Shown: positions 3,325 through 57,303 of the stretch, in pieces
Layout: every line of letters starts with the position of its first letter
How positions within the stretch are numbered: the first letter of the stretch is position 1
Assembly: GCF_016026235.1 (NCBI RefSeq)
Contig: NZ_CP065613.1
Reading direction: 5' to 3' (one strand)
DNA length: 64,000 nt
Source: Escherichia coli
Lineage (GTDB): Bacteria > Pseudomonadota > Gammaproteobacteria > Enterobacterales > Enterobacteriaceae
Position numbers and translations under genes: made by a program
The notes under the pieces: generated by a model
Told to the model about the DNA's origin: nothing
Database searches by the model: none
What the model saw: the letters and a program-made list of their open reading frames with translations, nothing else

Positions 3325-3400
3325 GCCCGGATAGCTCAGTCGGTAGAGCAGGGGATTGAAAATCCCCGTGTCCTTGGTTCGATTCCGAGTCCGGGCACCA
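3325..3400 (+). tRNA. pheV: tRNA-Phe (anticodon GAA)
   Basis: 76-nt GCCCGGATAGCTCAGTCGGTAGAGCAGGGGATTGAAAATCCCCGTGTCCTTGGTTCGATTCCGAGTCCGGGCACCA. The anticodon GAA is at 3358..3360 and the CCA end is encoded. Downstream of yqgA, as for pheV. Confidence 0.97.
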
Positions 3401-3437: not shown

Positions 3438-4560
3438 CGTTTCAGAACGCCACGATTTAAGCGTTCTGCCTACAAATCAATTCTACCGAACTCAACCAGA
3501 TTCCCCCCACATCAACCCCATTGTGTGGGTATAATTGCGGGCATACCCCAGTTCGACAGAATTTGTACCCTCTTTAACGCATTCAGAAGGCTGAACTATG
3601 GCACTGACTGACGCAAAAATCCGGGCTGCAAAGCCCACTGACAAGGCTTATAAACTCACTGACGGGGCTGGCATGTTCCTGCTGGTACATCCTAATGGCT
3701 CCCGTTACTGGCGTCTCCGTTATCGTATTCTGGGTAAGGAGAAGACTCTGGCACTTGGTGTGTATCCATAAGTTTCTCTCTCCGAAGCTCGTACAAAACG
3801 GGATGAGGCCCGAAAACTGATTTCGGAGGGGGTTGACCCTTGCGAACAGAAAAGAGCTAAAAAAGTAGTCCCTGATTTACAGCTCTCTTTTGAACATATT
3901 GCGCGACGCTGGCATGCCAGTAATAAACAATGGGCACAATCACACAGCGATAAAGTACTCAAAAGCCTCGAGACTCACGTTTTCCCCTTTATCGGCAACC
4001 GGGATATCACAACACTCAATACCCCGGATCTGCTTATCCCTGTTCGTGCTGCAGAAGCTAAACAAATTTATGAAATCGCCAGTCGTCTGCAGCAAAGAAT
4101 ATCTGCCGTAATGCGTTATGCCGTACAGTCTGGCATCATCAGATATAATCCTGCTCTGGATATGGCTGGCGCATTGACTACGGTAAAACGCCAGCATCGC
4201 CCCGCTCTTGATCTTTCTCGCCTGCCTGAACTTTTGTCGCGTATTGGCAGTTACAAAGGGCAACCTGTCACCCAGCTTGCCGTTATGCTGAATTTACTGG
4301 TTTTTATTCGTTCCAGTGAACTCAGATACGCCCGCTGGTCTGAAATTGATATTGACAATGCCATGTGGACTATTCCAGCCGAACGCGAACCCCTGCCAGG
4401 CGTAAAATTCTCACACCGGGGCTCCAAGATGCGAACACCACATCTTGTGCCACTCAGCAAACAGGCTGTAGCCATACTGACAGAACTACAGACATGGGCT
4501 GGTGAAAATGGTCTGATCTTTACGGGAGCACATGACCCGCGTAAACCAATCAGTGAAAAT

Positions 4561-6002
4561 GTAATGAACGCATCCCACACAATTAAACACAGAGCAGTAT
4601 GATGGTTAAAAGGGTGAAACTGGCAGGTGTGGAGCCTCGCAGATTTCCGGCATCATAGTGCCCAATACGGGATGCATAAAGCTCCCTCAGACTGGAGACT
4701 CCACAAATGAAATATACACCGGTTGGCGTTGATATCGCAAAACATGTCATTCAGATTCACTTCATCAATGAGCACACAGGTGAAGTGGTTGATAAACAGT
4801 TGCGTAGACAGGATTTTCTGACGTTCTTCGGCAACCGTGAGCCATGCCTGATTGGTATGGAGGCCTGTGGAGGTTCTCAGCACTGGGCACGGGAACTGAC
4901 AAAACTTGGTCATAAAGTCCGGTTGTTGCAGGCCCGCTTCGTTAAGGCATTCATCATGGGCAATAAGAATGATGTGATGGATGCCCGGGCTATCTGGATG
5001 GCGGTTCAGCAGCCGGGTAAAGAAATCGCCGTAAAAACAGAAGAACAGCAGTCGGTACTGGTTCTGCACCGTACCCGCATGCAACTGGTGAAGTTCCGGA
5101 CCGCACAAATTAATGCCCTGCACGGGACGTTACTGGAGTTTGGTGAAACCATCCACAAAGGCCGGGCAGCGATGGAGCGGGAGTTCCCCGAAGCACTGGA
5201 ACGGATGAAAGAGAGACTGCCACCGTATCTCATTATGGTTCTGGAAAACCAGTACAACCGACTGAATGAGCTGGACTCACTGATAGAGGATATTGAAAAA
5301 CAGCTTACCAGCGTGGCGAGGCAGAATGAAACCTGTAAGCGGTTGCTGGATATTCCTGGCGTTGGACCACTTATTGCGACGGCAGCGGTGGCCACCATGG
5401 GGAAGCATCAGCGTTTAAATCGGGGCGAGAGTTCGCCGCATATGTTGGTCTGGTTCCAAAACAAACTGGCTCCGGAGGGAAAGTACGTCTGCTGGGGATA
5501 AGCAAACGTGGTGACACTTATCTCAGGACATTATTTATCCACGGTGCAAGAGCGGTGGCATTAGTAGCTAAAGAGCCTGGCCCGTGGATAACCGAACTGA
5601 AAAAACGTCGTCCAGCCAGTGTAGCAATCGTCGCCATGGCAAACAAGCTGGCACGAACAGTATGGGCGATAACCGCCCATGACCGTAAGTATGACAGGAA
5701 CCACGTCAGTATCAGACCATATTAATCGCTGATACCATTAAACAATGAACTCTTAACAAAAGGGTGAATGCTGAAAGGTTGCTATGGCGGCCAGAGTGAT
5801 GACAAAGACAGGTAAGACCGTGACTCACTAAACCTGAACAGTATTTTGGGCTTGAAGTCCGCCGTGAAAATAAGGGGTGAGTCGGCGAATTACATAGGGG
5901 CTCGCAGCGTTACGGCTGCAATAAAGCCGGATATAAAGCTGCAACCTACCCGTCATGTCAAAACAATGGATGCCTTGCAAACAGGATGCGTTCATATAAA
6001 AT
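4561..6002 (+). mobile_element. IS110-family element (IS1111-subgroup-like) inserted in the integrase gene
   Basis: It precisely splits the integrase frame. 12-bp subterminal inverted repeats ATGAACGCATCC lie at 4564..4575 and 5984..5995, 3 nt and 7 nt from the ends. The 3' non-coding region is long (5726..6002). Confidence 0.8.
4707..5725 (+). pseudogene. IS110-family (DEDD) transposase with one frameshift
   Basis: MKYTPVGVDIAKHVIQIHFINEHTGEVV...DIPGVGPLIATAAVATMG, then a frame change at the G-run 5399..5402. It continues EASAFKSGREFAAYVGLVPKQTGSGGKVRLLGISKRGDTYLRTLFIHGARAV...DRNHVSIRPY. Confidence 0.8.
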
Positions 6003-6677
6003 ACTGTAAATAAAGCCCTGAGGGTGATGGGGTATGACACAACCCAGGATGTCTGTGGCCATGGATTCCGGGCGATGGCGTGCAGTGCATTGATTGAATC
6101 AGGTTTGTGGTCCCGCGATGCTGTGGAACGTCAGATGAGCCATCAGGAGCGTAATGGTGTACGTGCTGCGTATATCCATAAAGCAGAACATCTGGAAGAA
6201 CGTCGACTGATGCTACAGTGGTGGGCAGATTTTCTGGATGCGAACAGAGATAAGGGTATCAGCCCGTTTGAATATGCAAAGATTAACAATCCATTAAAAT
6301 AGTAAGCAGTCCGGGCTGATTGCCCGGACTGCTTTAACTGATTATTTTTCTTTGTAAATGATGACGAAGATTGATGTTCTGGCAAGTTACTCCGGCTTCC
6401 ATTAAAGTCCCTTCGTCATGTTCTTCAGGCTATTTATGACTGTGATTAGCACCAGGAATATCTGGTTTCCATGAGAGCAGGTAATAACCCCCGGTGTTTT
6501 CGGCTGTTCTGGTATCCTTGTCCAACACAGGCAGTCATTATAAACGGTAAAAAATGTATTCACTGTTATGAAATCAATAGTCCTGACGTACTGTTGAATG
6601 TGCTTGTGTTCTGAACCTTGTACAACCAGTACATTTGATACCGAATTATAAACAAAACATTGCATCCAACTTTTTCA

Positions 6678-6700
6678 ATATGGACAATAGTTGTCCATAT
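6678..6700. promoter_or_regulatory. Perfect 10-bp inverted repeat (ATATGGACAA-TAG-TTGTCCATAT), candidate operator upstream of the helicase-PLD gene
   Basis: Read directly from the sequence. It lies 54 bp upstream of ATG 6754 in an AT-rich leader, and a TATATT-like -10 follows at 6709..6714. Confidence 0.3.
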
Positions 6701-6753
6701 GGTGGTTTTATATTCGATAAATCAATGGATTTCATTGAGTCACAGGACTGGTA

Positions 6754-9700
6754 ATGGATGAAAATGCTTTAGGGTTTACCTCATACTGGCGCAACTCGCT
6801 TGCGGATGCTGAGTCAGGAAAGGGCAGTTTTGAACGGAAAGACGCCAAAAATTTCACTCACTGGCATGGGATAGCGGCGGGACGTCTTGACGAAGCGATT
6901 GTCAGTAAATTTTTTAAGGGAGAAAAAGACGATGTCGAAACGGTCGATGTCATCTTGCGCCCAAAAGTTTATTTCCGGTTACTGCAGCATGGTAAGGACC
7001 GTTCTGCAGGTGCGCCTGATATTGTTACCCCGATAGTGACGCCAGCCTTGCTAAGCCGTGAGGGTTTTTTATATCCGACGCCAGCGACCTCCATTCCCAG
7101 AGACCTGCTTGAACCTTTGCCAAAAGGAGCATTTTCGATTGGTGAGATTGGGCAGTATGACAAATACAAGACGACCCATACCACGTTCTCTATCAACTTT
7201 GATGACAGCGTTGATAAGACTGCCGAAACGGATGAAGAACGGGAAGCACGATATGCCGCCTTGCAGCAGGAGTGGCGTCAATATCTGTATGACTCAGAGA
7301 GGCTACTGAAGAGCGTTGCCGGCGACTGGATTGAAAAACCTGAGCAATATGAACTCGCTGAGCACGGTTATATTGTTAAAACGGCTCAATCTGGCGGTGC
7401 CAGTTCCCATATCCTTTCTCTTTATGATCACCTGCTTGTTTGCAATAAGGATGTGCCGCTCTTCAATCGCTTCGCCTCGCGAGAGGTTCATGCTGCAGAG
7501 TCTTTGCTGGCCCCAGGAGCAAAATTCAGCGACAGGCTTGGACACTCCGGAGATAAGTTTCCGCTGGCAAAGGCTCAGCGCGATGCCTTAAGCCATTTTC
7601 TGGATGCAAGACATGGCGATATCCTTGCTGTTAATGGCCCTCCGGGAACCGGAAAAACCACGCTGGTGCTTTCTATCATCGCCACGCAGTGGGCCAGAGC
7701 GGCTCTCGAAAAATCTGAGCCTCCGGTTATTATCGCGACTTCAACGAATAACCAGGCTGTAACGAACATTATTGAGGCATTCGGGAAAGACTTTTCGCAA
7801 GGTTCAGGTGCGATGGCCGGGCGATGGTTGCCAGAGCTGAAAAGCTTCGGTGCTTATTTTCCCTCAAGCAGTCGTAAAGCTGAGGCAGCCAAAAAATATC
7901 AAACTGAAGATTTCTTCAACCAGGTTGAGTCAAAAGAGTATGTAGAGGATGCACTGCTGTTTTATCTGGAAAAGGCTAAGGCAGCCTTTCCTGGAAAAGA
8001 GTGTTCATCCCCTGAAAAGGTCATTGAACTCTTGCATGGTCAGTTGGCAGCAAAATCTGAGCAACTGATAAGACTGAACGCAACATGGCAAACGTTAAGC
8101 CAGATTCGGGCTGCGCGTGAGCTTATTGCTAATGATATTGAGCAATATCTCGATAATTTAAATAAATTACTTTCCGGACAAGAACAAAAAGTCACTCTAC
8201 TGAAGAGTGCTAAAACGGAATGGAAAAAATATCGCGCCGGTGAATCACTGATCTATTCATTATTTTCCTGGCTCCCGGCGGTTCGCAATAAGCGACAGTA
8301 CCAAATACAGCTGTTTCTCGAAGATAAATTAGGCGCGCTGATTGCAGGAAATCAGTGGTCTGATCCTGAAACTATCGAACGTAATATTGATGGGCTGCTC
8401 AATTCCGCTGAGCGCGAGCAAACAACATACCGGCAGCAGATTGACTCCGCCCATGAAATCGTTCTTAAAGAACAGCAGGCGGTTCAGGAGTGGCAGAGGC
8501 TGGCATTTGATTTAGGGTATGAGGGCGACGAGGAACTGAGCTTCTCACAGGCCGATGAACTGGCTGATACGCAGATTCGCTTCCCTGCATTTTTACTGAC
8601 GACTCACTACTGGGAAGGTCGTTGGCTGATGGATATGGCCAGCATTGATGATCTGCAGGACGAGAAGAAGAAAAAAGGTGCTAAAGGGGTAACCGCCCGT
8701 TGGCAACGTCGAATGAAACTCACGCCATGTGTGGTGATGACATGCTATATGCTGCCCGGTAATATGCAGATAAGTGAGCACAAAGGACAACGTAAATTCG
8801 AGAAAAGTTATTTGTATGATTTTGCCGATTTACTCATTGTCGATGAAGCTGGGCAGGTGCTTCCTGAAGTGGCTGCTGCCTCGTTTGCATTAGCTAAGAA
8901 GGCATTAGTGATTGGCGATACGGAGCAGATCCCGCCAATATGGAGTATTGCTCCTGCGATTGATGTCGGTAACATGCTGGCGGAAAAAATTCTGTCTGGC
9001 AGTACGCAAGAAGAGATTACCGAGAAATATACGGCAATCGCAGACCTTGGTAAAAGTGCCGCATCTGGCAGCGTTATGAAAATAGCGCAGTTTGCTTCGC
9101 GCTATCAATATGATCCCGAACTGGCTCGTGGTATGTACCTATATGAACACCGCCGGTGCTACGACAATATTATTGGATACTGTAATACGCTCTGCTATCA
9201 CGGTAAGTTGTTGCCTAAAAGAGGGCGTGAAGAGAGCAATTTAATGCCCGCAATGGGGTATCTCCATATTGATGGTAAAGGAGAGCTGGCAAGTAGTGGA
9301 AGTCGATATAATTTGCTTGAGGCTGAAACGATAGCGGTCTGGTTGGCAGAGAACCAGCAAAATATTGAAGCGCATTACGGTAAATCGCTTCATGAAGTTG
9401 TCGGTATTGTGACGCCTTTTAGCGCTCAGGTATCCACTATCAAACAGGTGCTGGGCAAACAAATCAGTACAGGCACGAATGAAAAGTCGCTCACAGTGGG
9501 CACCGTGCACTCTCTTCAGGGAGCGGAAAGAGCGATTGTGATATTCTCGCCAGTCTATTCAAAACATGAAGACGGCGGGTTTATTGATAGCGATAACAGC
9601 ATGCTGAATGTTGCAGTCTCCCGTGCGAAGGACAGTTTTCTGGTCTTCGGCGATATGGACCTGTTTGAGGTCCAGCCAGCCTCATCGCCACGGGGATTAC

Positions 9701-10266
9701 TGGCAAAATACCTCTTTGAGTCAGAGAAGAATGCGCTCTCTTTTGATTATAAAGAGCGTAAGGATTTAAAAACCGCCGGGACCAAAATCTACACACTTCA
9801 TGGTGTGGAGCAACATGATAATTTCCTGAATCAGACATTTGAAAATACCAGTAAACACATCACGATAATTTCTCCATGGCTGACCTGGCAAAGGCTGGAG
9901 CAAACCGGTTTTCTTGATTCCATGATTGCGGCGTGTTCACGTGGAATTAACGTCACGATAGTCACTGACAGAAGCTACAACACTGAACATAATGATTTTG
10001 AGAAGCGAAAAGAGAAGCAGCAGAACTTTAAAGCGGCGCTGGAGAAACTGAATGCGCTGGGTATTGCTACAAAGCTGGTAAACCGTGTTCATAGCAAAAT
10101 TGTTATTGGTGATGATGGTTTGCTGTGTGTGGGATCGTTCAACTGGTTTAGTGCGACACGGGAAGCGCGATATGAACGATACGATACATCAATGGTTTAT
10201 TGCGGTGATAACCTGAAGGGTGAGATTGAGGCTATTTATAATAGTCTTGAGAGGCGTCAGGTTTAG
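6754..10266 (+). CDS. 1170-aa SF1 (Upf1/DNA2-like, AAA_11/AAA_12-type) helicase fused to a C-terminal PLD/Nuc-family nuclease domain; candidate defence protein
   Basis: Walker A GPPGTGKT at 7636..7659. Motif [11 protein letters not shown] at 8830..8856. [15 protein letters not shown] from 9505. [10 protein letters not shown] at 9604..9633. A single HKD motif [19 protein letters not shown] at 10090..10146. RBS AGGA lies 9 nt upstream of the ATG. Confidence 0.85.
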
Positions 10267-10405: not shown

Positions 10406-10621
10406 GAACGCTGAAAAATGAGAGCCTGAGCCACTATCGTTTTAATAACCGGGATGAAGCCATCTCAGTAATACGGGAATACATTGAGATTTTCTACAAT
10501 CGTCAGCGTCGTCACTCTCGTCTGGGGAATATCTCCCCGGCAGCCTTCAGGGAAAAATATCATCAGATGGCTGCTTAAAAAAAGAACAAATGGTAGTGTC
10601 CGCTATTGCCAGTACACCTCA
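10406..10621 (+). mobile_element. Right-end fragment of the IS600-like IS3-family element
   Basis: Identical to about 40874..41089 (the end of orfB plus the terminal repeat ...GGTAGTGTCCGCTATTGCCAGTACACCTCA). Confidence 0.8.
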
Positions 10622-11012
10622 GACTGGTGCCAGGTGAATATTCCAGTGGAAACAGTATTCGTCCCAGAGGAATAACAAAAGTTGGAAACAGCGAACTGAG
10701 ACGTCTGCTTTACGAAGCCGCCTGGTCTTATCGTACACCTGCAAAAGTTGGAGCATGGCTTATATATTACCGACCGGACTCTGTAACACAATATTCCAAA
10801 GATATTGCATGGAAAGCTCAACAACGATTGTGTTCTCGTTACCGAACTCTGACAGCAAAAGGGAAAAAATCACAAGTAGCCATTACGGCGGTGGCTCGTG
10901 AGTTGACTGGATTTATGTGGGATATTGCACTTGCTGCCCAATCATCATTCAGTCAGCAGAAGCAAAATTAAACCCTGAAGCAGTCAGACACGGAATGAGT
11001 GATCCTCGAAAA
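10622..11012 (+). mobile_element. 3' remnant of a third, divergent IS110-family element (transposase C-terminal fragment 10622..10971)
   Basis: ...GITKVGNSELRRLLYEAAWSYRTPAKVG...VAITAVARELTGFMWDIALAA... resembles the C-terminus of the 19878..21003 transposase. It is cut at its 5' side by the IS600-like end. A GACACGGAA terminal motif lies only ~20 nt after the stop. Confidence 0.65.
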
Positions 11013-11015
11013 AGT

Positions 11016-24371: not shown

Positions 24372-26462
24372 TCAGAACTGATAGTTCAGCGACATCCAGT
24401 AATTTCGCTCAGGTATCACATATCCTGTTGTTGATGATCCCGTCTGGAAGTAATCACCGGCATACAGCGTACTCTTACCGGCACTGTACAGGCTCACGTC
24501 ACTGTAATCCTTGTTGAGCAGGTTATTCACCGCAGCATTCAGCGTCAGGGCATCCGTCATCTTCCACGACAGACCTGCATCCACCACCGTCCAGGCTTTC
24601 AGGTATTCTCCTTTCTCATCATACACTTTCTTCTGTACAGCGCTCAGTGACGAATAATTCTGGGTGAAACGTGGTGTTTTCCCGCGATAACGGGCACCCA
24701 GCCATGATGCCACCTCTTCGGTGATCTGCCAGTTCAGTTTCGCATTCACCATGTGTTCAGGGGTATAACTCAGCGGCGCACCTTTGTTATCACCATCACG
24801 TTGTTCACTTCGGGTCCAGGTGTAATTCAGTGACAGCGTGACATCCTCTGACCACAGCGGCAATGTGCCGGCAAATTCCACACCGTGCAACCGGGCCTTT
24901 CCGCTGTTTACATAGCTATTGGTGTTATCATTTATGGAATAAGAGACAATCTTGTTGGAGAAGTCAGTCATAAAACCTGTGACATTGGCATTCAGACCGG
25001 CGGGGTTATCGTAATACACCCCAGCCTCATAACTGACGCTCTCTTCCGGCTTCAGGTCGGGGTTACCAAGTAGATTTGTTTTTCCCTGCCCGGACACACC
25101 ACTAATCCCTTTATGTAGCTGCCCCATTCTGGGTGCCTTATATCCCGTGGTCACACCGCCTTTCAGCGTCCAGGCATCTGCCACATCCCAGACCAGATAT
25201 GCACGCGGACTGAAGTGTCCCCCGAATTGCTCATGATGTTCATAGCGGCTGCCCGCAGTCAGCGCAAGTGCATCCGTGAGATGCCACTCATCCTCAGCAA
25301 ATACCGACCAGCTTTTCTGCCGGAAAGTTTCACCTGTGCTGGCAAGGACAACTCCGTCTTTCATGGACGAGCTCTGAAACTCGCCCCCCACCGTAACCAG
25401 ATGAGATTCTCCCAGAGGGGTAAGCAGTAATGAATTCAGGATAAGGTTCGATTCCTTAAGCTCCCGCGGCTGACCGGCAAGCCCCCATTTGTCGCGCTTC
25501 AGTACACTGCGTACGAGCTCACGACCTTTATTTTCTGTCTCGTTCCAGTTCAGATACGATTTCCATGTTCCGAAGGTGAAAGTATGATCATAGCCAGCTG
25601 AAATTTTGTTCCGCTCATAGCGCAGGGTCCGGTCATATCCCCCCGTCAGACTCCCCAGTTGCCCATCCCGGTTATCATAACGCTGCCGGGTGGTATCCAT
25701 ATCAAACCAGAGCACATCCTGCTCCGACGCCTTCCAGTCAAGACGTGCACCAAGATTATAATTCTGTGACTCCGTGGGATAAGGAATACGCGTGGCTGCT
25801 GTATCGCTCAGTGATGTGACCGATGAGCCCTGACGCTGTTGTGTGCTACCGCGTACCTGCAGGCTGACAGAATCATCCACAAGGGGGCCACTGCTCCAGA
25901 AATTAAACTGGCTGCTGTTACCCCATTTGTTGCTTTCCTGCAGATTCAGCCCTGCATTGACGGAAGAGAGCCATTTGTCTGCATTCTTTCTGGTAATGAT
26001 ATTCACCACACCGCCCATCGCATCAGAGCCATACAGTGTGGACATCGGCCCCCTGATAACCTCAATACGCTCAATGGCGGCCAGAGGGGGCATGAACCCG
26101 GTATTCATGGCAGAAAAACCGTTGGGAGTCACGTCACTGCTTCCGCCCTGACGAACACCATCAATCAGTATCAGCGTGTAACTGGCTGGCATTCCTCGGA
26201 TGCTGATTTCCAGCCCACCGGTTTTACCCGTACCACTTTCAACATCCACACCCTCTACTGATCTCAGAGCCTCCGCCAGATCGTGGTACTGGCTGGACTG
26301 CAATTCCTCCTGGCTAATCACAGAAACACTGGCGGCTGCGTTAGTCAGCTTTTTCTCATAGCCGGATGCCGAGACAATCATCACATCCTCTGCAGCAGCT
26401 ATGCTGCTGGCTGAAAATCCGAGACAGGGAATGACTACGGAAGCCAGAGTGGTTATTCGCAT
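24372..26462 (-). CDS. iha: Iha, IrgA-homologue adhesin / TonB-dependent catecholate siderophore receptor
   Basis: 696 aa, MRITTLASVVIPCLGFSASSIAAAEDVMIVSASGYEKKLTNAAASVSVISQEEL... It has a TonB box/plug, and the beta-barrel ends ...NYWMSLNYQF. Confidence 0.95.
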   Translation of the reverse strand: MRITTLASVVIPCLGFSASSIAAAEDVMIVSASGYEKKLTNAAASVSVISQEELQSSQYHDLAEALRSVEGVDVESGTGKTGGLEISIRGMPASYTLILIDGVRQGGSSDVTPNGFSAMNTGFMPPLAAIERIEVIRGPMSTLYGSDAMGGVVNIITRKNADKWLSSVNAGLNLQESNKWGNSSQFNFWSSGPLVDDSVSLQVRGSTQQRQGSSVTSLSDTAATRIPYPTESQNYNLGARLDWKASEQDVLWFDMDTTRQRYDNRDGQLGSLTGGYDRTLRYERNKISAGYDHTFTFGTWKSYLNWNETENKGRELVRSVLKRDKWGLAGQPRELKESNLILNSLLLTPLGESHLVTVGGEFQSSSMKDGVVLASTGETFRQKSWSVFAEDEWHLTDALALTAGSRYEHHEQFGGHFSPRAYLVWDVADAWTLKGGVTTGYKAPRMGQLHKGISGVSGQGKTNLLGNPDLKPEESVSYEAGVYYDNPAGLNANVTGFMTDFSNKIVSYSINDNTNSYVNSGKARLHGVEFAGTLPLWSEDVTLSLNYTWTRSEQRDGDNKGAPLSYTPEHMVNAKLNWQITEEVASWLGARYRGKTPRFTQNYSSLSAVQKKVYDEKGEYLKAWTVVDAGLSWKMTDALTLNAAVNNLLNKDYSDVSLYSAGKSTLYAGDYFQTGSSTTGYVIPERNYWMSLNYQF

Positions 26463-54005: not shown

Positions 54006-54183
54006 AATAATAACCTTTGTCAGTAACATGCACAGATACGTACAGAAAGACATTCAGGGAACAACAGAACCACAATTCAGAAACTCCCACAGCCGGACCT
54101 CCGGCACTGTAACCCTTTACCTGCCGGTATCCACGTTTGTGGGTACCGGCTTTTTTATTCACCCTCAATCTAAGGAAAAGCTG

Positions 54184-57100
54184 ATGAAACGACATCTGAA
54201 CACCAGCTACAGGCTGGTATGGAATCACATTACGGGCACCCTGGTGGTGGCTTCCGAACTGGCCCGCTCACGGGGAAAACGCGCCGGTGTGGCGGTTGCG
54301 CTGTCTCTTGCTCCTGTCATGTCAGTCCCGACACTGGCTGCTGACATCGTTGTACGCCCGGGAGAAACCGTGAACGGCGGAACACTGGCAAATCATGACA
54401 ACCAGATTGTCTTCGGTACGACCAACGGAATGACCATCAGTACCGGGCTGGAGTATGGGCCAGATAACGAGGCCAATACCGGCGGGCAATGGGTACAGGA
54501 TGGCGGAACAGCCAACAAAACGACAGTCACCAGTGGTGGTCTTCAGAGAGTGAACCCCGGTGGAAGTGTCTCAGACACGGTTATCAGTGCCGGAGGCGGA
54601 CAGAGCCTTCAGGGACGGGCAGTGAACACCACGCTGAATGGTGGCGAACAGTGGATGCATGAGGGGGCAATAGCCACAGGAACCGTCATCAATGATAAGG
54701 GCTGGCAGGTCGTCAAGCCCGGTACAGTGGCAACGGATACCGTTGTTAATACCGGGGCGGAAGGGGGACCGGATGCAGAAAACGGTGATACCGGGCAGTT
54801 TGTTCGCGGGGATGCCGTACGCACAACCATCAATAAAAACGGTCGCCAGATTGTGAGAACTGAAGGAACGGCAAATACCACTGTGGTTTATGCCGGCGGC
54901 GACCAGACGGTACATGGTCACGCACTGGATACCACGCTGAATGGGGGGTACCAGTATGTGCACAACGGCGGTACAGCGTCTGGCACTGTTGTAAACAGTG
55001 ACGGCTGGCAGGTGATTAAGGAAGGAGGAAGTGCCACGCATACCACCATCAATCAGAAAGGAAAGCTGCAGGTGAACGCCGGTGGTAAAGCGGCTGATGT
55101 CACCCAGAACACGGGCGGTGCACTGGTTACCAGTACGGCTGCAACCGTTACCGGCATAAACCGCCTTGGAGCATTCTCGGTTGTGGAGGGTAAAGCTGAT
55201 AATGTCGTACTGGAAAATGGCGGACGCCTGGATGTGCTGACCGGACACACAGCCACTAATACCCGCGTGGATGATGGCGGAACGCTGGATGTCCGCAACG
55301 GTGGTACCGCCACCACCGTATCCATGGGAAATGGCGGTGTACTGCTGGCCGATTCCGGTGCCGCTGTCAGTGGTACCCGGAGCGACGGAAAGGCATTCAG
55401 TATCGGAGGCGGTCAGGCGGATGCCCTGATGCTGGAAAAAGGCAGTTCATTCACGCTGAACGCCGGTGATACGGCCACGGATACCACGGTAAATGGCGGA
55501 CTGTTCACCGCCAGGGGCGGCACACTGGCGGGCACCACCACGCTGAATAACGGCGCCATACTTACCCTTTCTGGGAAGACGGTGAACAACGATACCCTGA
55601 CCATCCGTGAAGGCGATGCACTCCTGCAGGGAGGCTCTCTCACCGGTAACGGCAGCGTGGAAAAATCAGGAAGTGGCACACTCACTGTCAGCAACACCAC
55701 ACTCACCCAGAAAGCCGTCAACCTGAATGAAGGCTCGCTGACGCTGAACGACAGTACCGTCACCACGGATGTCATTGCTCAGCGCGGTACAGCCCTGAAG
55801 CTGACCGGCAGCACTGTGCTGAACGGTGCCATTGACCCCACGAATGTCACTCTCGCCTCCGGTGCCACCTGGAATATCCCTGATAACGCCACGGTGCAGT
55901 CGGTGGTGGATGACCTCAGCCATGCCGGACAGATTCATTTCACCTCCACCCGCACAGGGAAGTTCGTACCGGCAACCCTGAAAGTGAAAAACCTGAACGG
56001 GCAGAATGGCACCATCAGCCTGCGTGTACGCCCGGATATGGCACAGAACAATGCTGACAGACTGGTCATTGACGGCGGCAGGGCAACCGGAAAAACCATC
56101 CTGAACCTGGTGAACGCCGGCAACAGTGCGTCGGGGCTGGCGACCAGCGGTAAGGGTATTCAGGTGGTGGAAGCCATTAACGGTGCCACCACGGAGGAAG
56201 GGGCCTTTGTCCAGGGGAACAGGCTGCAGGCCGGGGCCTTTAACTACTCCCTCAACCGGGACAGTGATGAGAGCTGGTATCTGCGCAGTGAAAATGCTTA
56301 TCGTGCAGAAGTCCCCCTGTATGCCTCCATGCTGACACAGGCAATGGACTATGACCGGGTTCTGGCAGGCTCCCGCAGCCATCAGACCGGTGTAAACGGT
56401 GAAAATAACAGCGTCCGTCTCAGCATTCAGGGCGGCCATCTCGGTCACGATAACAACGGCGGTATTGTCCGTGGGGCCACGCCGGAAAGCAGCGGCAGCT
56501 ATGGCTTCGTCCGTCTGGAGGGTGACCTGCTCAGAACAGAGGTTGCCGGTATGTCTGTGACCGCGGGGGTATATGGTGCTGCAGGCCATTCTTCCGTTGA
56601 TGTTAAGGATGATGACGGCTCCCGTGCCGGCACGGTCCGGGATGATGCCGGCAGCCTGGGCGGATACCTGAATCTGATACACAACGCCTCCGGCCTGTGG
56701 GCTGACATTGTGGCACAGGGAACCCGCCACAGTATGAAAGCGTCATCGGACAATAACGACTTCCGCGCACGGGGCCGGGGCTGGCTGGGCTCACTGGAAA
56801 CCGGTCTGCCCTTCAGTATCACTGACAACCTGATGCTGGAGCCACAACTGCAGTATACCTGGCAGGGACTTTCCCTGGACGACGGCCAGGATAACGCCGG
56901 TTATGTGAAGTTCGGGCATGGCAGTGCACAACATGTGCGTGCCGGCTTCCGTCTGGGCAGCCACAACGATATGAACTTTGGTAAAGGCACCTCATCCCGT
57001 GACACCCTGCGCGGCTGTGCCAAACACAGTGTGCGTGAACTGCCGGTGAACTGGTGGGTACAGCCTTCTGTTATCCGCACCTTCAGTTCCCGGGGGGACA

Positions 57101-57303
57101 TGAGCATGGGTACAGCCGCAGCCGGCAGTAACATGACGTTCTCACCGTCACAGAATGGTACGTCACTGGACCTGCAGGCCGGACTGGAAGCCCGTGTCCG
57201 GGAAAACATCACCCTGGGCGTTCAGGCTGGTTATGTCCACAGCGTCAGCGGCAGCAGCGCTGAAGGCTATAACGGTCAGGCCACGCTGAATGTGACCTTC
57301 TGA
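54184..57303 (+). CDS. flu: Antigen 43 self-associating autotransporter
   Basis: 1039 aa, MKRHLNTSYRLVWNHITGTLVVASELARSRGKRAGVAVALSLA... It has a repetitive beta-helix passenger (VxNGGxxxxTxV repeats), and the beta-barrel ends ...YNGQATLNVTF. Confidence 0.95.
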   Translation: MKRHLNTSYRLVWNHITGTLVVASELARSRGKRAGVAVALSLAPVMSVPTLAADIVVRPGETVNGGTLANHDNQIVFGTTNGMTISTGLEYGPDNEANTGGQWVQDGGTANKTTVTSGGLQRVNPGGSVSDTVISAGGGQSLQGRAVNTTLNGGEQWMHEGAIATGTVINDKGWQVVKPGTVATDTVVNTGAEGGPDAENGDTGQFVRGDAVRTTINKNGRQIVRTEGTANTTVVYAGGDQTVHGHALDTTLNGGYQYVHNGGTASGTVVNSDGWQVIKEGGSATHTTINQKGKLQVNAGGKAADVTQNTGGALVTSTAATVTGINRLGAFSVVEGKADNVVLENGGRLDVLTGHTATNTRVDDGGTLDVRNGGTATTVSMGNGGVLLADSGAAVSGTRSDGKAFSIGGGQADALMLEKGSSFTLNAGDTATDTTVNGGLFTARGGTLAGTTTLNNGAILTLSGKTVNNDTLTIREGDALLQGGSLTGNGSVEKSGSGTLTVSNTTLTQKAVNLNEGSLTLNDSTVTTDVIAQRGTALKLTGSTVLNGAIDPTNVTLASGATWNIPDNATVQSVVDDLSHAGQIHFTSTRTGKFVPATLKVKNLNGQNGTISLRVRPDMAQNNADRLVIDGGRATGKTILNLVNAGNSASGLATSGKGIQVVEAINGATTEEGAFVQGNRLQAGAFNYSLNRDSDESWYLRSENAYRAEVPLYASMLTQAMDYDRVLAGSRSHQTGVNGENNSVRLSIQGGHLGHDNNGGIVRGATPESSGSYGFVRLEGDLLRTEVAGMSVTAGVYGAAGHSSVDVKDDDGSRAGTVRDDAGSLGGYLNLIHNASGLWADIVAQGTRHSMKASSDNNDFRARGRGWLGSLETGLPFSITDNLMLEPQLQYTWQGLSLDDGQDNAGYVKFGHGSAQHVRAGFRLGSHNDMNFGKGTSSRDTLRGCAKHSVRELPVNWWVQPSVIRTFSSRGDMSMGTAAAGSNMTFSPSQNGTSLDLQAGLEARVRENITLGVQAGYVHSVSGSSAEGYNGQATLNVTF

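Follow-up and report, generated by a model that had tools for sequence, protein, structure and literature searches.

Assignment of the first cargo gene of an Escherichia coli pheV island to mkoC, the single gene of the Mokosh type II defence system

Background

The locus analysed here raises the question of what is encoded by a long open reading frame (ORF) lying behind a broken integrase gene in a pheV island of Escherichia coli, and of how the encoded protein would act. The sequence considered, hereafter the window, is the whole stretch of 64,000 nt of E. coli DNA (contig NZ_CP065613.1), and the ORF occupies positions 6754..10266 on the + strand. A preliminary description, made from the letters alone, had proposed it as a stand-alone helicase-PLD gene with the layout of Mokosh type II, and had held its mechanism to be essentially unknown.

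Three Mokosh systems were reported to defend E. coli, with mutants of the ATP site and of the PLD abolishing defence, and RNA or RNA/DNA hybrids were proposed as the target (Millman et al. 2022). The Mokosh constructs carried native promoters; one of them, SG150, is an E. coli Mokosh type II construct marked as verified, whose 3903-nt insert contains mkoC and no other gene (Millman et al. 2022, bioRxiv 10.1101/2022.05.11.491447). According to a 2025 preprint, purified EcMokosh II is monomeric (132 kDa, mass photometry), protects against the ssDNA phage SECphi17 only in a panel of 11 phages, cuts ssDNA substrates only, nicks plasmid DNA and does not cleave dsDNA or E. coli chromosomal DNA in vitro; its Walker A/B mutants still cleave in vitro, and the panel of cleavage substrates was without RNA. 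The published phage ranges place type I on T-even-like phages and type II on an ssDNA phage, and for a near-identical E. coli MkoC the literature gives constitutive production from its own promoter. The fused E. coli Mokosh, called 'yjhR' by Cury et al., was aligned by the same authors with MOV10L1 (TM 0.74) and PLD6 (TM 0.63).

Results

The reading frame (ATG start, 1170 aa, calculated mass 131.4 kDa) is intact over 3513 nt. In the PADLOC search proposed earlier, the MkoC model PDLC03924 was matched end to end (E = 0, 1684.8 bits), aa 1-1168 of the protein being aligned to positions 1-1135 of the 1136 of the model. The window protein is 96.2% identical to SG150 MkoC over the first 399 aa, which is all of the SG150 table sequence; for this reason identity beyond aa 399 was estimated from the database protein P0036, whose N-terminus equals that of SG150 and which stands in for the rest with a 22-aa internal deletion, giving ~97% over the alignable length. 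Precisely, there are roughly 33 substitutions relative to the verified SG150 protein, enriched in the N-terminal domain, and the window protein is one residue shorter, a glycine being missing near aa 904 in RecA2 (GKQGISTG to GKQISTG). This deletion, which falls in a low-conservation loop preceding motif V, sets the window protein apart from all 120 relatives among the matches listed; at least 23 public contigs nonetheless carry the same 1170-aa allele, the integrase being intact on some of them.

Compared with SG150 (Mokosh type II of E. coli 5-366-08_S1_C1), the window protein therefore belongs to the same family and has the same end-to-end architecture, and its length differs by that one residue; the genomic site is different. 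The layout is that of a single gene, in that the flanks consist of integrase and IS debris and the neighbours differ completely among homologues. Judged from its sequence, the window gene is mkoC itself and not merely a Mokosh II-like gene, so that the reading as a stand-alone helicase-PLD gene was correct, yet it describes something already known: since an E. coli Mokosh type II gene ~96-97% identical has already been tested and catalogued, the finding is not new, the naming, the testing and the cataloguing of the system going back to 2022. The experiments put forward as a check (cloning with the native leader, a phage panel, Walker A and HKD mutants) have in essence been done on this near-identical allele.

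Mokosh type I has an Upf1-like helicase and a PLD nuclease as well, both needed for its defence, but it consists of two genes, MkoA and MkoB, whereas the window system consists of one. MkoA has a Ser/Thr kinase domain, in the place of which MkoC has a unique N-terminal domain and a helical stalk; MkoB is labelled HTH-PLD in Table S2 of Millman et al. (bioRxiv 10.1101/2022.05.11.491447). The PADLOC MkoA model matched aa 692-973 of MkoC (E = 5e-37), the MkoA profiles as a group reaching the helicase part only (aa 692-993), and the MkoB model matched aa 1010-1137 (E = 2e-16). No kinase domain was found in MkoC by the Pfam search, and type I was ruled out for the window gene by this absence together with the single gene.

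As regards the protein parts, Pfam AAA_11 (62 bits), AAA_12 (80 bits) and PLDc_2 (40 bits, aa 1027-1137) all exceeded the gathering score of 27 bits that applies to each of them, in line with the SF1 helicase and PLD nuclease proposed earlier. The motifs lie exactly at the residues given for them in the preliminary description. We divided the protein into six parts, all on the + strand. The N-terminal alpha/beta domain (aa 1-260, 6754..7533) is specific to MkoC. It is followed by the first part of RecA1 (aa 261-370, 7534..7863), delimited by motifs, Pfam, conservation and the AlphaFold2 model, which contains the Q-like motif (Q275, R276), Walker A GPPGTGKT (aa 295-302, nt 7636-7659) and motif Ia TNNQA (aa 331-335). 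An all-helical stalk of five long helices is inserted in RecA1 (aa ~371-640, 7864..8673), as seen in the AlphaFold2 secondary structure. The second part of RecA1 (aa 641-780, 8674..9093), delimited by motifs, conservation and AlphaFold2, carries Walker B, or motif II, VDEAGQ (aa 696-701, nt 8839-8856) and motif III GDTEQ (aa 721-725). RecA2 (aa 781-1000, 9094..9753), matched by AAA_12 at aa 777-968 and by Foldseek to SETX, UPF1, IGHMBP2, Aquarius and DNA2, carries motif V VHSLQGAE (aa 918-925) and motif VI VAVSRAK (aa 953-959). A single Nuc-like PLD nuclease domain (aa 1001-1170, 9754..10263), matched by PLDc_2 and by the PADLOC MkoB and DrmC models, carries H1113-x-K1115-x4-D1120 (nt 10090-10113) and GSFNW (aa 1127-1131).

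The two RecA domains thus hold motifs I, Ia, II, III, V and VI of the Upf1/DNA2 type, and the motifs for ATP binding and hydrolysis of an Upf1-like (COG1112) SF1 helicase, GPPGTGKT and VDEAGQ, are intact. The C-terminal 170 aa align, weakly, to one NucT/Nuc monomer and contain one HKD motif only, as had been described. When aa 1-265 and aa 359-689 were searched alone, no meaningful Pfam match was obtained even at E <= 10 (noise only), in line with the ~290 N-terminal residues in which no motif had been recognised.

The AlphaFold2 model of the full-length protein (mean pLDDT 84.8, pTM 0.75) consists of the N-terminal alpha/beta domain, a split Upf1/SETX-like core, the five-helix stalk and one Nuc-like PLD domain. 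The long helices of the stalk span aa 420-458, 462-495, 508-530, 538-586 and 597-630, in agreement with the coiled-coil-like middle that had been noticed between Walker A and Walker B. The best Foldseek matches were SETX, UPF1, Aquarius, IGHMBP2, DNA2, Sen1 and ZNFX1 (E from 1e-17 to 1e-12), and sequence matches to Upf1-like helicases reached 1e-7. MkoC has the same fold and motif set as the eukaryotic Upf1-like SF1B helicases (UPF1, SETX/Sen1, IGHMBP2, Aquarius, DNA2, ZNFX1, MOV10L1) at an identity of only 11-14%, and has its ~270-aa stalk where these have short 1C/prong inserts. DNA2, like MkoC, combines a nuclease and an Upf1-like helicase in one chain, but its nuclease is an N-terminal PD-(D/E)XK domain, whereas that of MkoC is a C-terminal PLD. 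We also considered the N-terminal domain as an Upf1-type 1B barrel, and the search matched no recognisable barrel; viral homologues of this domain were not found in BFVD (best E = 0.26). Neither the sequence search nor the fold search found a solved MkoC structure, and in a single-sequence search of the PDB with the PLD domain the top matches were spurious propeller repeats, NucT and Nuc being weak.

The single-HKD nucleases Nuc, NucT, Zucchini/PLD6 and BfiI build the active site across a homodimer. The PLD domain of MkoC shares with each of them one HxK(x4)D...GSxN motif in a domain of ~160 aa; it differs in being tethered to a helicase, in a protein whose E. coli form is reported to be monomeric in solution. 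The dimer rule given for single-HKD nucleases in the preliminary description finds no confirmation in the mass photometry of E. coli MkoC, in which the protein behaves as a monomer.

Conservation was evaluated across 47 representatives at 30-51% identity, in which Walker A, DEAGQ, motifs V and VI and HxK(x4)D are conserved; D1120, G1127 and W1131 are invariant, and H1113 and K1115 are present in at least 90%. Within the N-terminal domain D18, R116, P121 and Y224 are invariant. Among 37 close alleles (the window protein and 36 full-length relatives) the variable sites amount to 31% in the N-terminal domain and 28.5% in the stalk, versus 11-19% in the catalytic domains; the stalk is conserved in length and its sequence is among the most variable parts of MkoC.

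Upstream of the gene, the leader has a GC content of 39%, which falls to 34% in its last 160 nt, the window as a whole having 50%, so that an AT-rich leader of its own had been rightly described. The stretch at 6598..6753 (+ strand, 34% GC), which moves together with the gene, is conserved with the SG150 construct and presumably holds the native promoter and the ribosome-binding region. In fact, the window and the SG150 insert align from ~155 nt ahead of the ATG onwards, the sequences farther upstream being unrelated. A scan of the + strand upstream of the ATG for the sigma-70 consensus gave no strong match in the leader, and the promoter is for this reason deduced from the native-promoter constructs alone. 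No significant RNA element was found when the leader and its flanks were scanned with Rfam (best E = 0.083).

The inverted repeat ATATGGACAA-TAG-TTGTCCATAT (6678..6700, unstranded; 10-nt arms, 3-nt spacer) lies 54 nt upstream of the ATG. The palindrome that had been called perfect is therefore real, but it is perfect in the window allele only: its arms have one mismatch in alleles that are 99.8% identical and two to three in the verified SG150 construct, and it is imperfect in the three loci L001, L002 and L003 as well as in SG150. A conserved operator, which we considered for this element, is unsupported, since the perfection is limited to this allele.

The island context agrees with the one proposed. 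A tRNA-Phe gene at 3325..3400 (+), the attachment site of the island, has speC and yqgA upstream, and since it lies downstream of yqgA the site is pheV. The P4-type tyrosine integrase (3598..6302, +) is split at about codon 321 into fragments 3598-4560 and 5998-6302 by ISEc11 (1437 bp, 4561-5997), the transposase of which is itself frameshifted. Just past the integrase stop there is a 13-bp GC-rich hairpin (6304..6334, unstranded), conserved in L001-L003, which is probably the integrase terminator. Between mkoC and sigA (12737-16594), fragments of IS3, a transposase, IS66 and a TraF pseudogene occupy 10408..12376 (unstranded), mapped by offset from the annotation of a 99.9%-identical stretch in E. 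coli EC2.

The gene is present in ~17% of complete E. coli genomes (about 900), in which its RefSeq label is "AAA domain-containing protein" only, including O104:H4 2011C-3493. The survey of neighbourhoods that had been suggested places diverse homologues in defence islands or mobile elements, as expected for a defence gene: E. coli homologues lie in a P4-like satellite or in pheV or pheU islands, one of Enterobacter is flanked by a type I RM system and a ScoMcrA-type HNH nuclease, SymE and a reverse transcriptase being close by, and one of Xanthomonas lies within an integrase/MobA/TraD element; the Stutzerimonas homologue stands alone amid housekeeping genes. In E. coli K-12, the 338 aa of yjhR (b4308, a KpLE2 pseudogene) align to MkoC aa 834-1170 with 67% identity, a region that takes in the last part of RecA2 and the complete PLD domain with HSK and GSFNW. 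Differently from the window gene, yjhR is a truncated, non-functional remnant of a diverged paralogous allele in another island (leuX/nan region).

Discussion

We consider as the best joint explanation that the ORF is mkoC, the first cargo gene of the pheV island, with the ssDNA-cutting action set out below, and assign to it a probability of about 0.88. We take, from name and mass only (132 kDa, against 131.4 kDa calculated for the window protein), the EcMokosh II of the 2025 preprint to be SG150. Protection from phage by the window allele is predicted from the ~96-97% identical SG150 and from EcMokosh II. A mechanism essentially unknown, as it had been put, no longer describes the state of the literature, in which ssDNA-specific cleavage, plasmid nicking, a monomer and protection against ssDNA phage only have been given by that preprint.

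In the action that we propose, MkoC would patrol as a monomer, and its helicase would load onto phage nucleic acid exposed in single-stranded form, for example the genomes of microviruses or intermediates of replication and transcription. ATP-driven translocation would then find, discriminate or expose the target in the cell. The studied Upf1/Senataxin-like SF1B helicases track 5'->3' along single-stranded nucleic acid, and from family membership the same direction may be expected of MkoC. Cleavage would proceed through a metal-independent phospho-histidine intermediate. Because there is one HKD per monomer, only half an active site is expected, and we infer that this half-site might be completed by transient dimerisation on the substrate. 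For E. coli MkoC, defence in cells has been reported to need both the HKD site and the ATP site, whereas cutting in vitro is ATPase-independent.

The N-terminal domain and the stalk, as the fastest-changing parts, might give specificity for the target or trigger, or autoinhibition. As a tentative extension, which we regard as having perhaps one chance in four, aa 1-260 would be a new fold acting with the stalk as a sensor or gate, either recognising a phage cue or holding the HKD half-site off until a pair of MkoC molecules comes together on single-stranded nucleic acid to form one full active site. If true, this would account both for the activity of a monomeric enzyme with a single HKD and for an ATPase requirement that exists in cells and not in vitro.

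The alternative that survives best concerns the substrate. MkoC could target phage RNA or RNA/DNA hybrids, as a prokaryotic analogue of Upf1 surveillance or of the MOV10L1-Zucchini piRNA pathway, the cutting of ssDNA in vitro being a side activity; we hold this to be possible and clearly the less probable reading. The closest solved structures are RNA helicases (SETX-ssRNA, UPF1-RNA, IGHMBP2-RNA), and the alignment of the fused E. coli protein by Cury et al. with MOV10L1 and PLD6 points the same way. Because Millman et al. proposed RNA or RNA/DNA hybrids and the substrates cut in 2025 did not include RNA, ssDNA may not be the physiological target. However, the purified E. coli protein does cut ssDNA, and the sole phage restricted in the panel has an ssDNA genome; moreover the Upf1-like DNA2, IGHMBP2 and SETX act on DNA too, so that similarity of fold leaves the substrate unsettled.

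Helicase-nuclease systems are often self-damaging, which, with the nicking of plasmid DNA in vitro, would be consistent with abortive infection, in which triggered MkoC degrades the nucleic acid of host and phage alike, the cell being killed or arrested instead of the phage being cleared directly; since mkoC stands alone, there is also no modification partner to mark self. We consider this unlikely. In fact, dsDNA and E. coli chromosomal DNA are left uncut in vitro, and growth markers and mkoC expression are positively correlated in natural strains of E. coli, suggesting no obvious cost.

Conjugation delivers ssDNA, and the ssDNA specificity in vitro would suit a gene that, in this island, chiefly counters plasmid ssDNA entering by conjugation or mobilisation, or stabilises the island, phage defence coming second. 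Islands at pheV and pheU with quite different cargo retain the int-mkoC pair as their left-end module, and one homologue lies in a mobilisable element beside MobA and TraD. We judge this reading improbable, as the phage phenotype has been directly shown, and many defence genes lie beside an integrase, a position that calls for no special role.

That the window copy is an inactive relic, as its decayed surroundings (split integrase, frameshifted ISEc11, IS fragments), the one-residue deletion near aa 904 that none of the 120 relatives among the matches listed shares and the decay of the family into pseudogenes such as K-12 yjhR might suggest, is very improbable in view of the intact frame, the presence of every invariant catalytic residue of the family, the intact leader in common with the tested construct, the recurrence of the allele on public contigs and the low conservation of the loop in which the deletion falls.

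Conclusions

With the window gene read as mkoC, the main value of the finding is one of annotation, in that an "AAA domain-containing protein" of ~900 complete E. coli genomes is a validated anti-phage system. What this analysis adds is a confident AlphaFold model, the allele-specific perfection of the palindrome and the splitting of the integrase by a dead ISEc11. In pheV and pheU pathogenicity islands the gene has been retained in the first cargo position, and, as a validated anti-phage gene of such islands, it probably makes the strains that carry it resistant to microviruses, and perhaps to other sources of ssDNA too; such resistance matters when phages are chosen for therapy.

Identification of the helicase-PLD gene as Mokosh type II

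We considered the first cargo gene of the pheV island (mkoC, 6754..10266, +) as a single-gene Mokosh type II system, as proposed in the preliminary description. This assignment was supported by a full-length match to the PADLOC MkoC model (E = 0, 1684.8 bits, residues 1-1168 on model positions 1-1135 of 1136) and by identity to SG150, an E. coli construct from strain 5-366-08_S1_C1 that is listed in Table S2 of Millman et al. (bioRxiv 10.1101/2022.05.11.491447) as "Mokosh type II", status "v" (verified), with an MkoC of 1171 aa. The window protein was 96.2% identical to SG150 over the first 399 residues, the span given in that table, and showed 33 differences from a database protein carrying the 399-aa N-terminus of SG150 (~97% identity, leaving out the database protein's own 22-aa internal deletion). 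Mokosh type I components in PADLOC matched the shared domains only (MkoA at aa 692-973, MkoB at aa 1010-1137); moreover, type I has a kinase domain, whereas the window system is one gene without it, hence not type I. We tested all the sequence-level defining features of Mokosh type II, and the window gene has each of them.

Millman et al. cloned defence systems under native promoters, found three Mokosh systems protecting E. coli, and observed loss of Mokosh defence on mutating the ATP-binding site or the PLD active site (bioRxiv 10.1101/2022.05.11.491447). The cloning and mutant experiment suggested earlier has thus in essence already been done, on a near-identical allele. The finding is already known, as Mokosh type II has been named, experimentally validated and present in PADLOC and DefenseFinder since 2022.

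Reading frame, motifs and leader

The 1170-aa frame ran without interruption, with a calculated mass of 131.4 kDa, and all the motifs reported from first inspection lay exactly where they had been placed: GPPGTGKT (295-302), VDEAGQ (696-701), VHSLQGAE (918-925), VAVSRAK (953-959), H1113-S-K1115 and GSFNW (1127-1131). In Pfam, AAA_11, AAA_12 and PLDc_2 each scored above the gathering score; residues 1-265, part of the ~290 N-terminal residues described as carrying no recognised motif, indeed had no match at E <= 10, nor did the insert between Walker A and Walker B. One glycine near aa 904 was lost in frame (GKQGISTG to GKQISTG, nt ~9460-9470, aa 901-907). It was kept in all 120 listed relatives, the full-length ones all being 1171 aa. 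Since the exact 1170-aa allele recurs on at least 23 public contigs, on some with an intact integrase, the deletion is a lineage marker and not an error.

The leader, noted as AT-rich, measured 39% GC and aligned with the last ~155 nt of the SG150 cloned upstream region; farther upstream the sequences were unrelated. The palindrome described there exists as an inverted repeat at 6678-6700 (10-nt arms, 3-nt spacer), but it is perfect in the window allele only, with one arm mismatch in 99.8%-identical alleles and two or three in the tested construct. Because the arms are imperfect in other alleles, we gave no weight to the repeat as an operator. Separately, an 87-aa ATG ORF lies inside the leader on the opposite strand (6402-6665, -); it is a gene call on one public contig (L016, 501-764) and absent from the RefSeq annotation of identical sequence.

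Genomic context and distribution

The insertion site is pheV, given the tRNA-Phe gene at 3325-3400 downstream of yqgA. The integrase ahead of mkoC is dead, as had been described: it is of P4 type (3598-6302) and is split after ~codon 321 by a 1437-bp ISEc11 of the IS110 family (4561-5997). This ISEc11 is itself dead, its transposase frame breaking after ~residue 231 (ORF 4707..5501, 264 aa vs 339 aa); copies that match it in other respects, in E. coli O121 (L002) and on two contigs with an mkoC allele identical to that of the window (L013, L015), encode the full 339-aa transposase. Past mkoC, the IS debris seen earlier consists of IS3, IS66 and TraF fragments occupying the gap up to sigA. Virulence cargo lies elsewhere on the island (12737-16594; 24372-26462, -; 29880-37926, -; 54028-57303), where the genes encode the SigA serine-protease autotransporter, a TonB-dependent receptor (NCBIfam PRK13486; our guess is Iha), an IS66 transposase, a TonB-dependent siderophore receptor with siderophore-biosynthesis genes after it, presumably the aerobactin iutA-iuc cluster, and an Ag43-family autotransporter. 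We take the island to resemble the Shigella SHI-1 and EAEC pheV islands; among the closest mkoC alleles are proteins of Shigella flexneri, Shigella sonnei and E. coli O104:H4 2011C-3493, the last with a 99.5%-identical copy.

Of 5426 complete E. coli genomes, 942 have mkoC, without exception on the chromosome, where it is annotated as "AAA domain-containing protein". The int::ISEc11-mkoC module also occurs, 97.7% identical, in E. coli O121 (NZ_CP119441.1, 1519-6455), beside pheU, which is the second phenylalanine tRNA gene and lies downstream of dsbD-dicD; its presence at both sites indicates that the module moved or recombined between them after the IS insertion. The cargo behind pheV-int-mkoC is quite different in another strain (pap, tia), and a P4-like satellite near nanM carries yet another allele. 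In K-12, the pseudogene yjhR (b4308; MG1655 locus L004, 7016-8032) is what remains of a diverged MkoC: its 338 aa share 67% identity with residues 834-1170 of the window protein and cover the end of RecA2 and the PLD domain, with the HSK motif intact. The pseudogene lies in the KpLE2/nan-fim region, adjoining the TopAI-YjhQ toxin-antitoxin pair. "yjhR" is the name used by Cury et al. for the fused E. coli Mokosh.

The family comprised 1139 representatives (E <= 1e-30, library clustered at 50% identity), and most of the best 150 aligned end to end at 31-52% identity. At least 10 representatives of ~970-1035 aa lacked the PLD domain, the alignment running from the N-terminal domain through the helicase (query aa ~1-995) and then ending (P0149, P0156, P0158, P0159, P0161, P0165, P0168, P0226, P0229, P0237, each standing for a 50% cluster). 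These could represent a Mokosh II variant that is split or has swapped its effector, or could be truncated gene calls. The Enterobacter MkoC (68% identical; L009/L010, 1-15313) lies in a compact defence island, flanked on either side by a type I RM system (hsdR, hsdM, hsdS) and a ScoMcrA-type SBD-HNH nuclease, with a SymE toxin nearby; one of the genomes also encodes a reverse-transcriptase protein of 1005 aa. Wu et al. report that Mokosh II in E. coli co-occurs with type IV restriction and co-localises with it, and the Enterobacter island is in line with the co-localisation. A Xanthomonas homologue lies within an integrase/MobA/TraD element, and a Stutzerimonas homologue stands alone among housekeeping genes.

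Predicted structure and conservation

The AlphaFold2 model (79 sequences) was confident (mean pLDDT 84.8, pTM 0.75). Its domain boundaries place an N-terminal alpha/beta domain at aa 1 to ~260, RecA1 in two parts (~261-370 and 641-780) separated by a five-helix stalk (420-458, 462-495, 508-530, 538-586, 597-630), RecA2 at ~781-1000 and a single PLD domain at 1001-1170. Foldseek against the PDB returned SETX, UPF1, Aquarius, IGHMBP2, DNA2, Sen1 and ZNFX1 (E 1e-17 to 1e-12); no structure of MkoC itself was found there by sequence or Foldseek. As modelled, the N-terminal domain is structurally orphan.

The helicase motifs and HxK(x4)D...GSxNW showed little or no variation across 47 diverse representatives, and four residues of the N-terminal domain (D18, R116, P121 and Y224) were invariant. 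When the window protein was compared with 36 close full-length enterobacterial relatives (37 alleles in all), 31% of positions varied in the N-terminal domain and 28.5% in the stalk; the RecA and PLD domains varied at 11-19%. In the wide family, stalk residues 420-600 were the least conserved bar the gap-rich loop 151-180, although the length of this stretch is maintained.

Proposed mechanism and alternatives

The E. coli protein EcMokosh II, which by name and mass is probably SG150, was monomeric (132 kDa by mass photometry), restricted only the ssDNA phage SECphi17 among 11 phages, cleaved only ssDNA substrates in vitro, nicked plasmid DNA, and retained cleavage in vitro with Walker A/B mutations (bioRxiv 10.1101/2025.07.10.664194). 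A constitutively made MkoC would load on exposed single-stranded phage nucleic acid, probably moving 5'->3' as family membership suggests, and would cut by a phospho-histidine mechanism if PLD chemistry applies. That a protein with one HKD motif is monomeric is a paradox; the half-site is perhaps completed by transient dimerisation on the substrate.

Alternatively, the target could be RNA or an R-loop, the hypothesis of Millman et al.: RNA helicases are the best fold matches of the model, and the in-vitro substrate panel contained no RNA. Abortive infection as the mode of action and conjugative ssDNA as the primary target also compete with the loading of MkoC on phage nucleic acid. That the window gene is an inactive relic is unlikely, its motifs being intact and its allele recurrent.

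Mokosh II expression in natural strains follows growth markers and is alike between strains, as would be expected if the gene has its own conserved promoter. The N-terminal domain and stalk may serve in sensing or gating. Since the ATP site is needed in vivo, yet Walker mutants cleave in vitro, the chemistry would not depend on the motor, whose task in the cell would be finding, discriminating or exposing the target.
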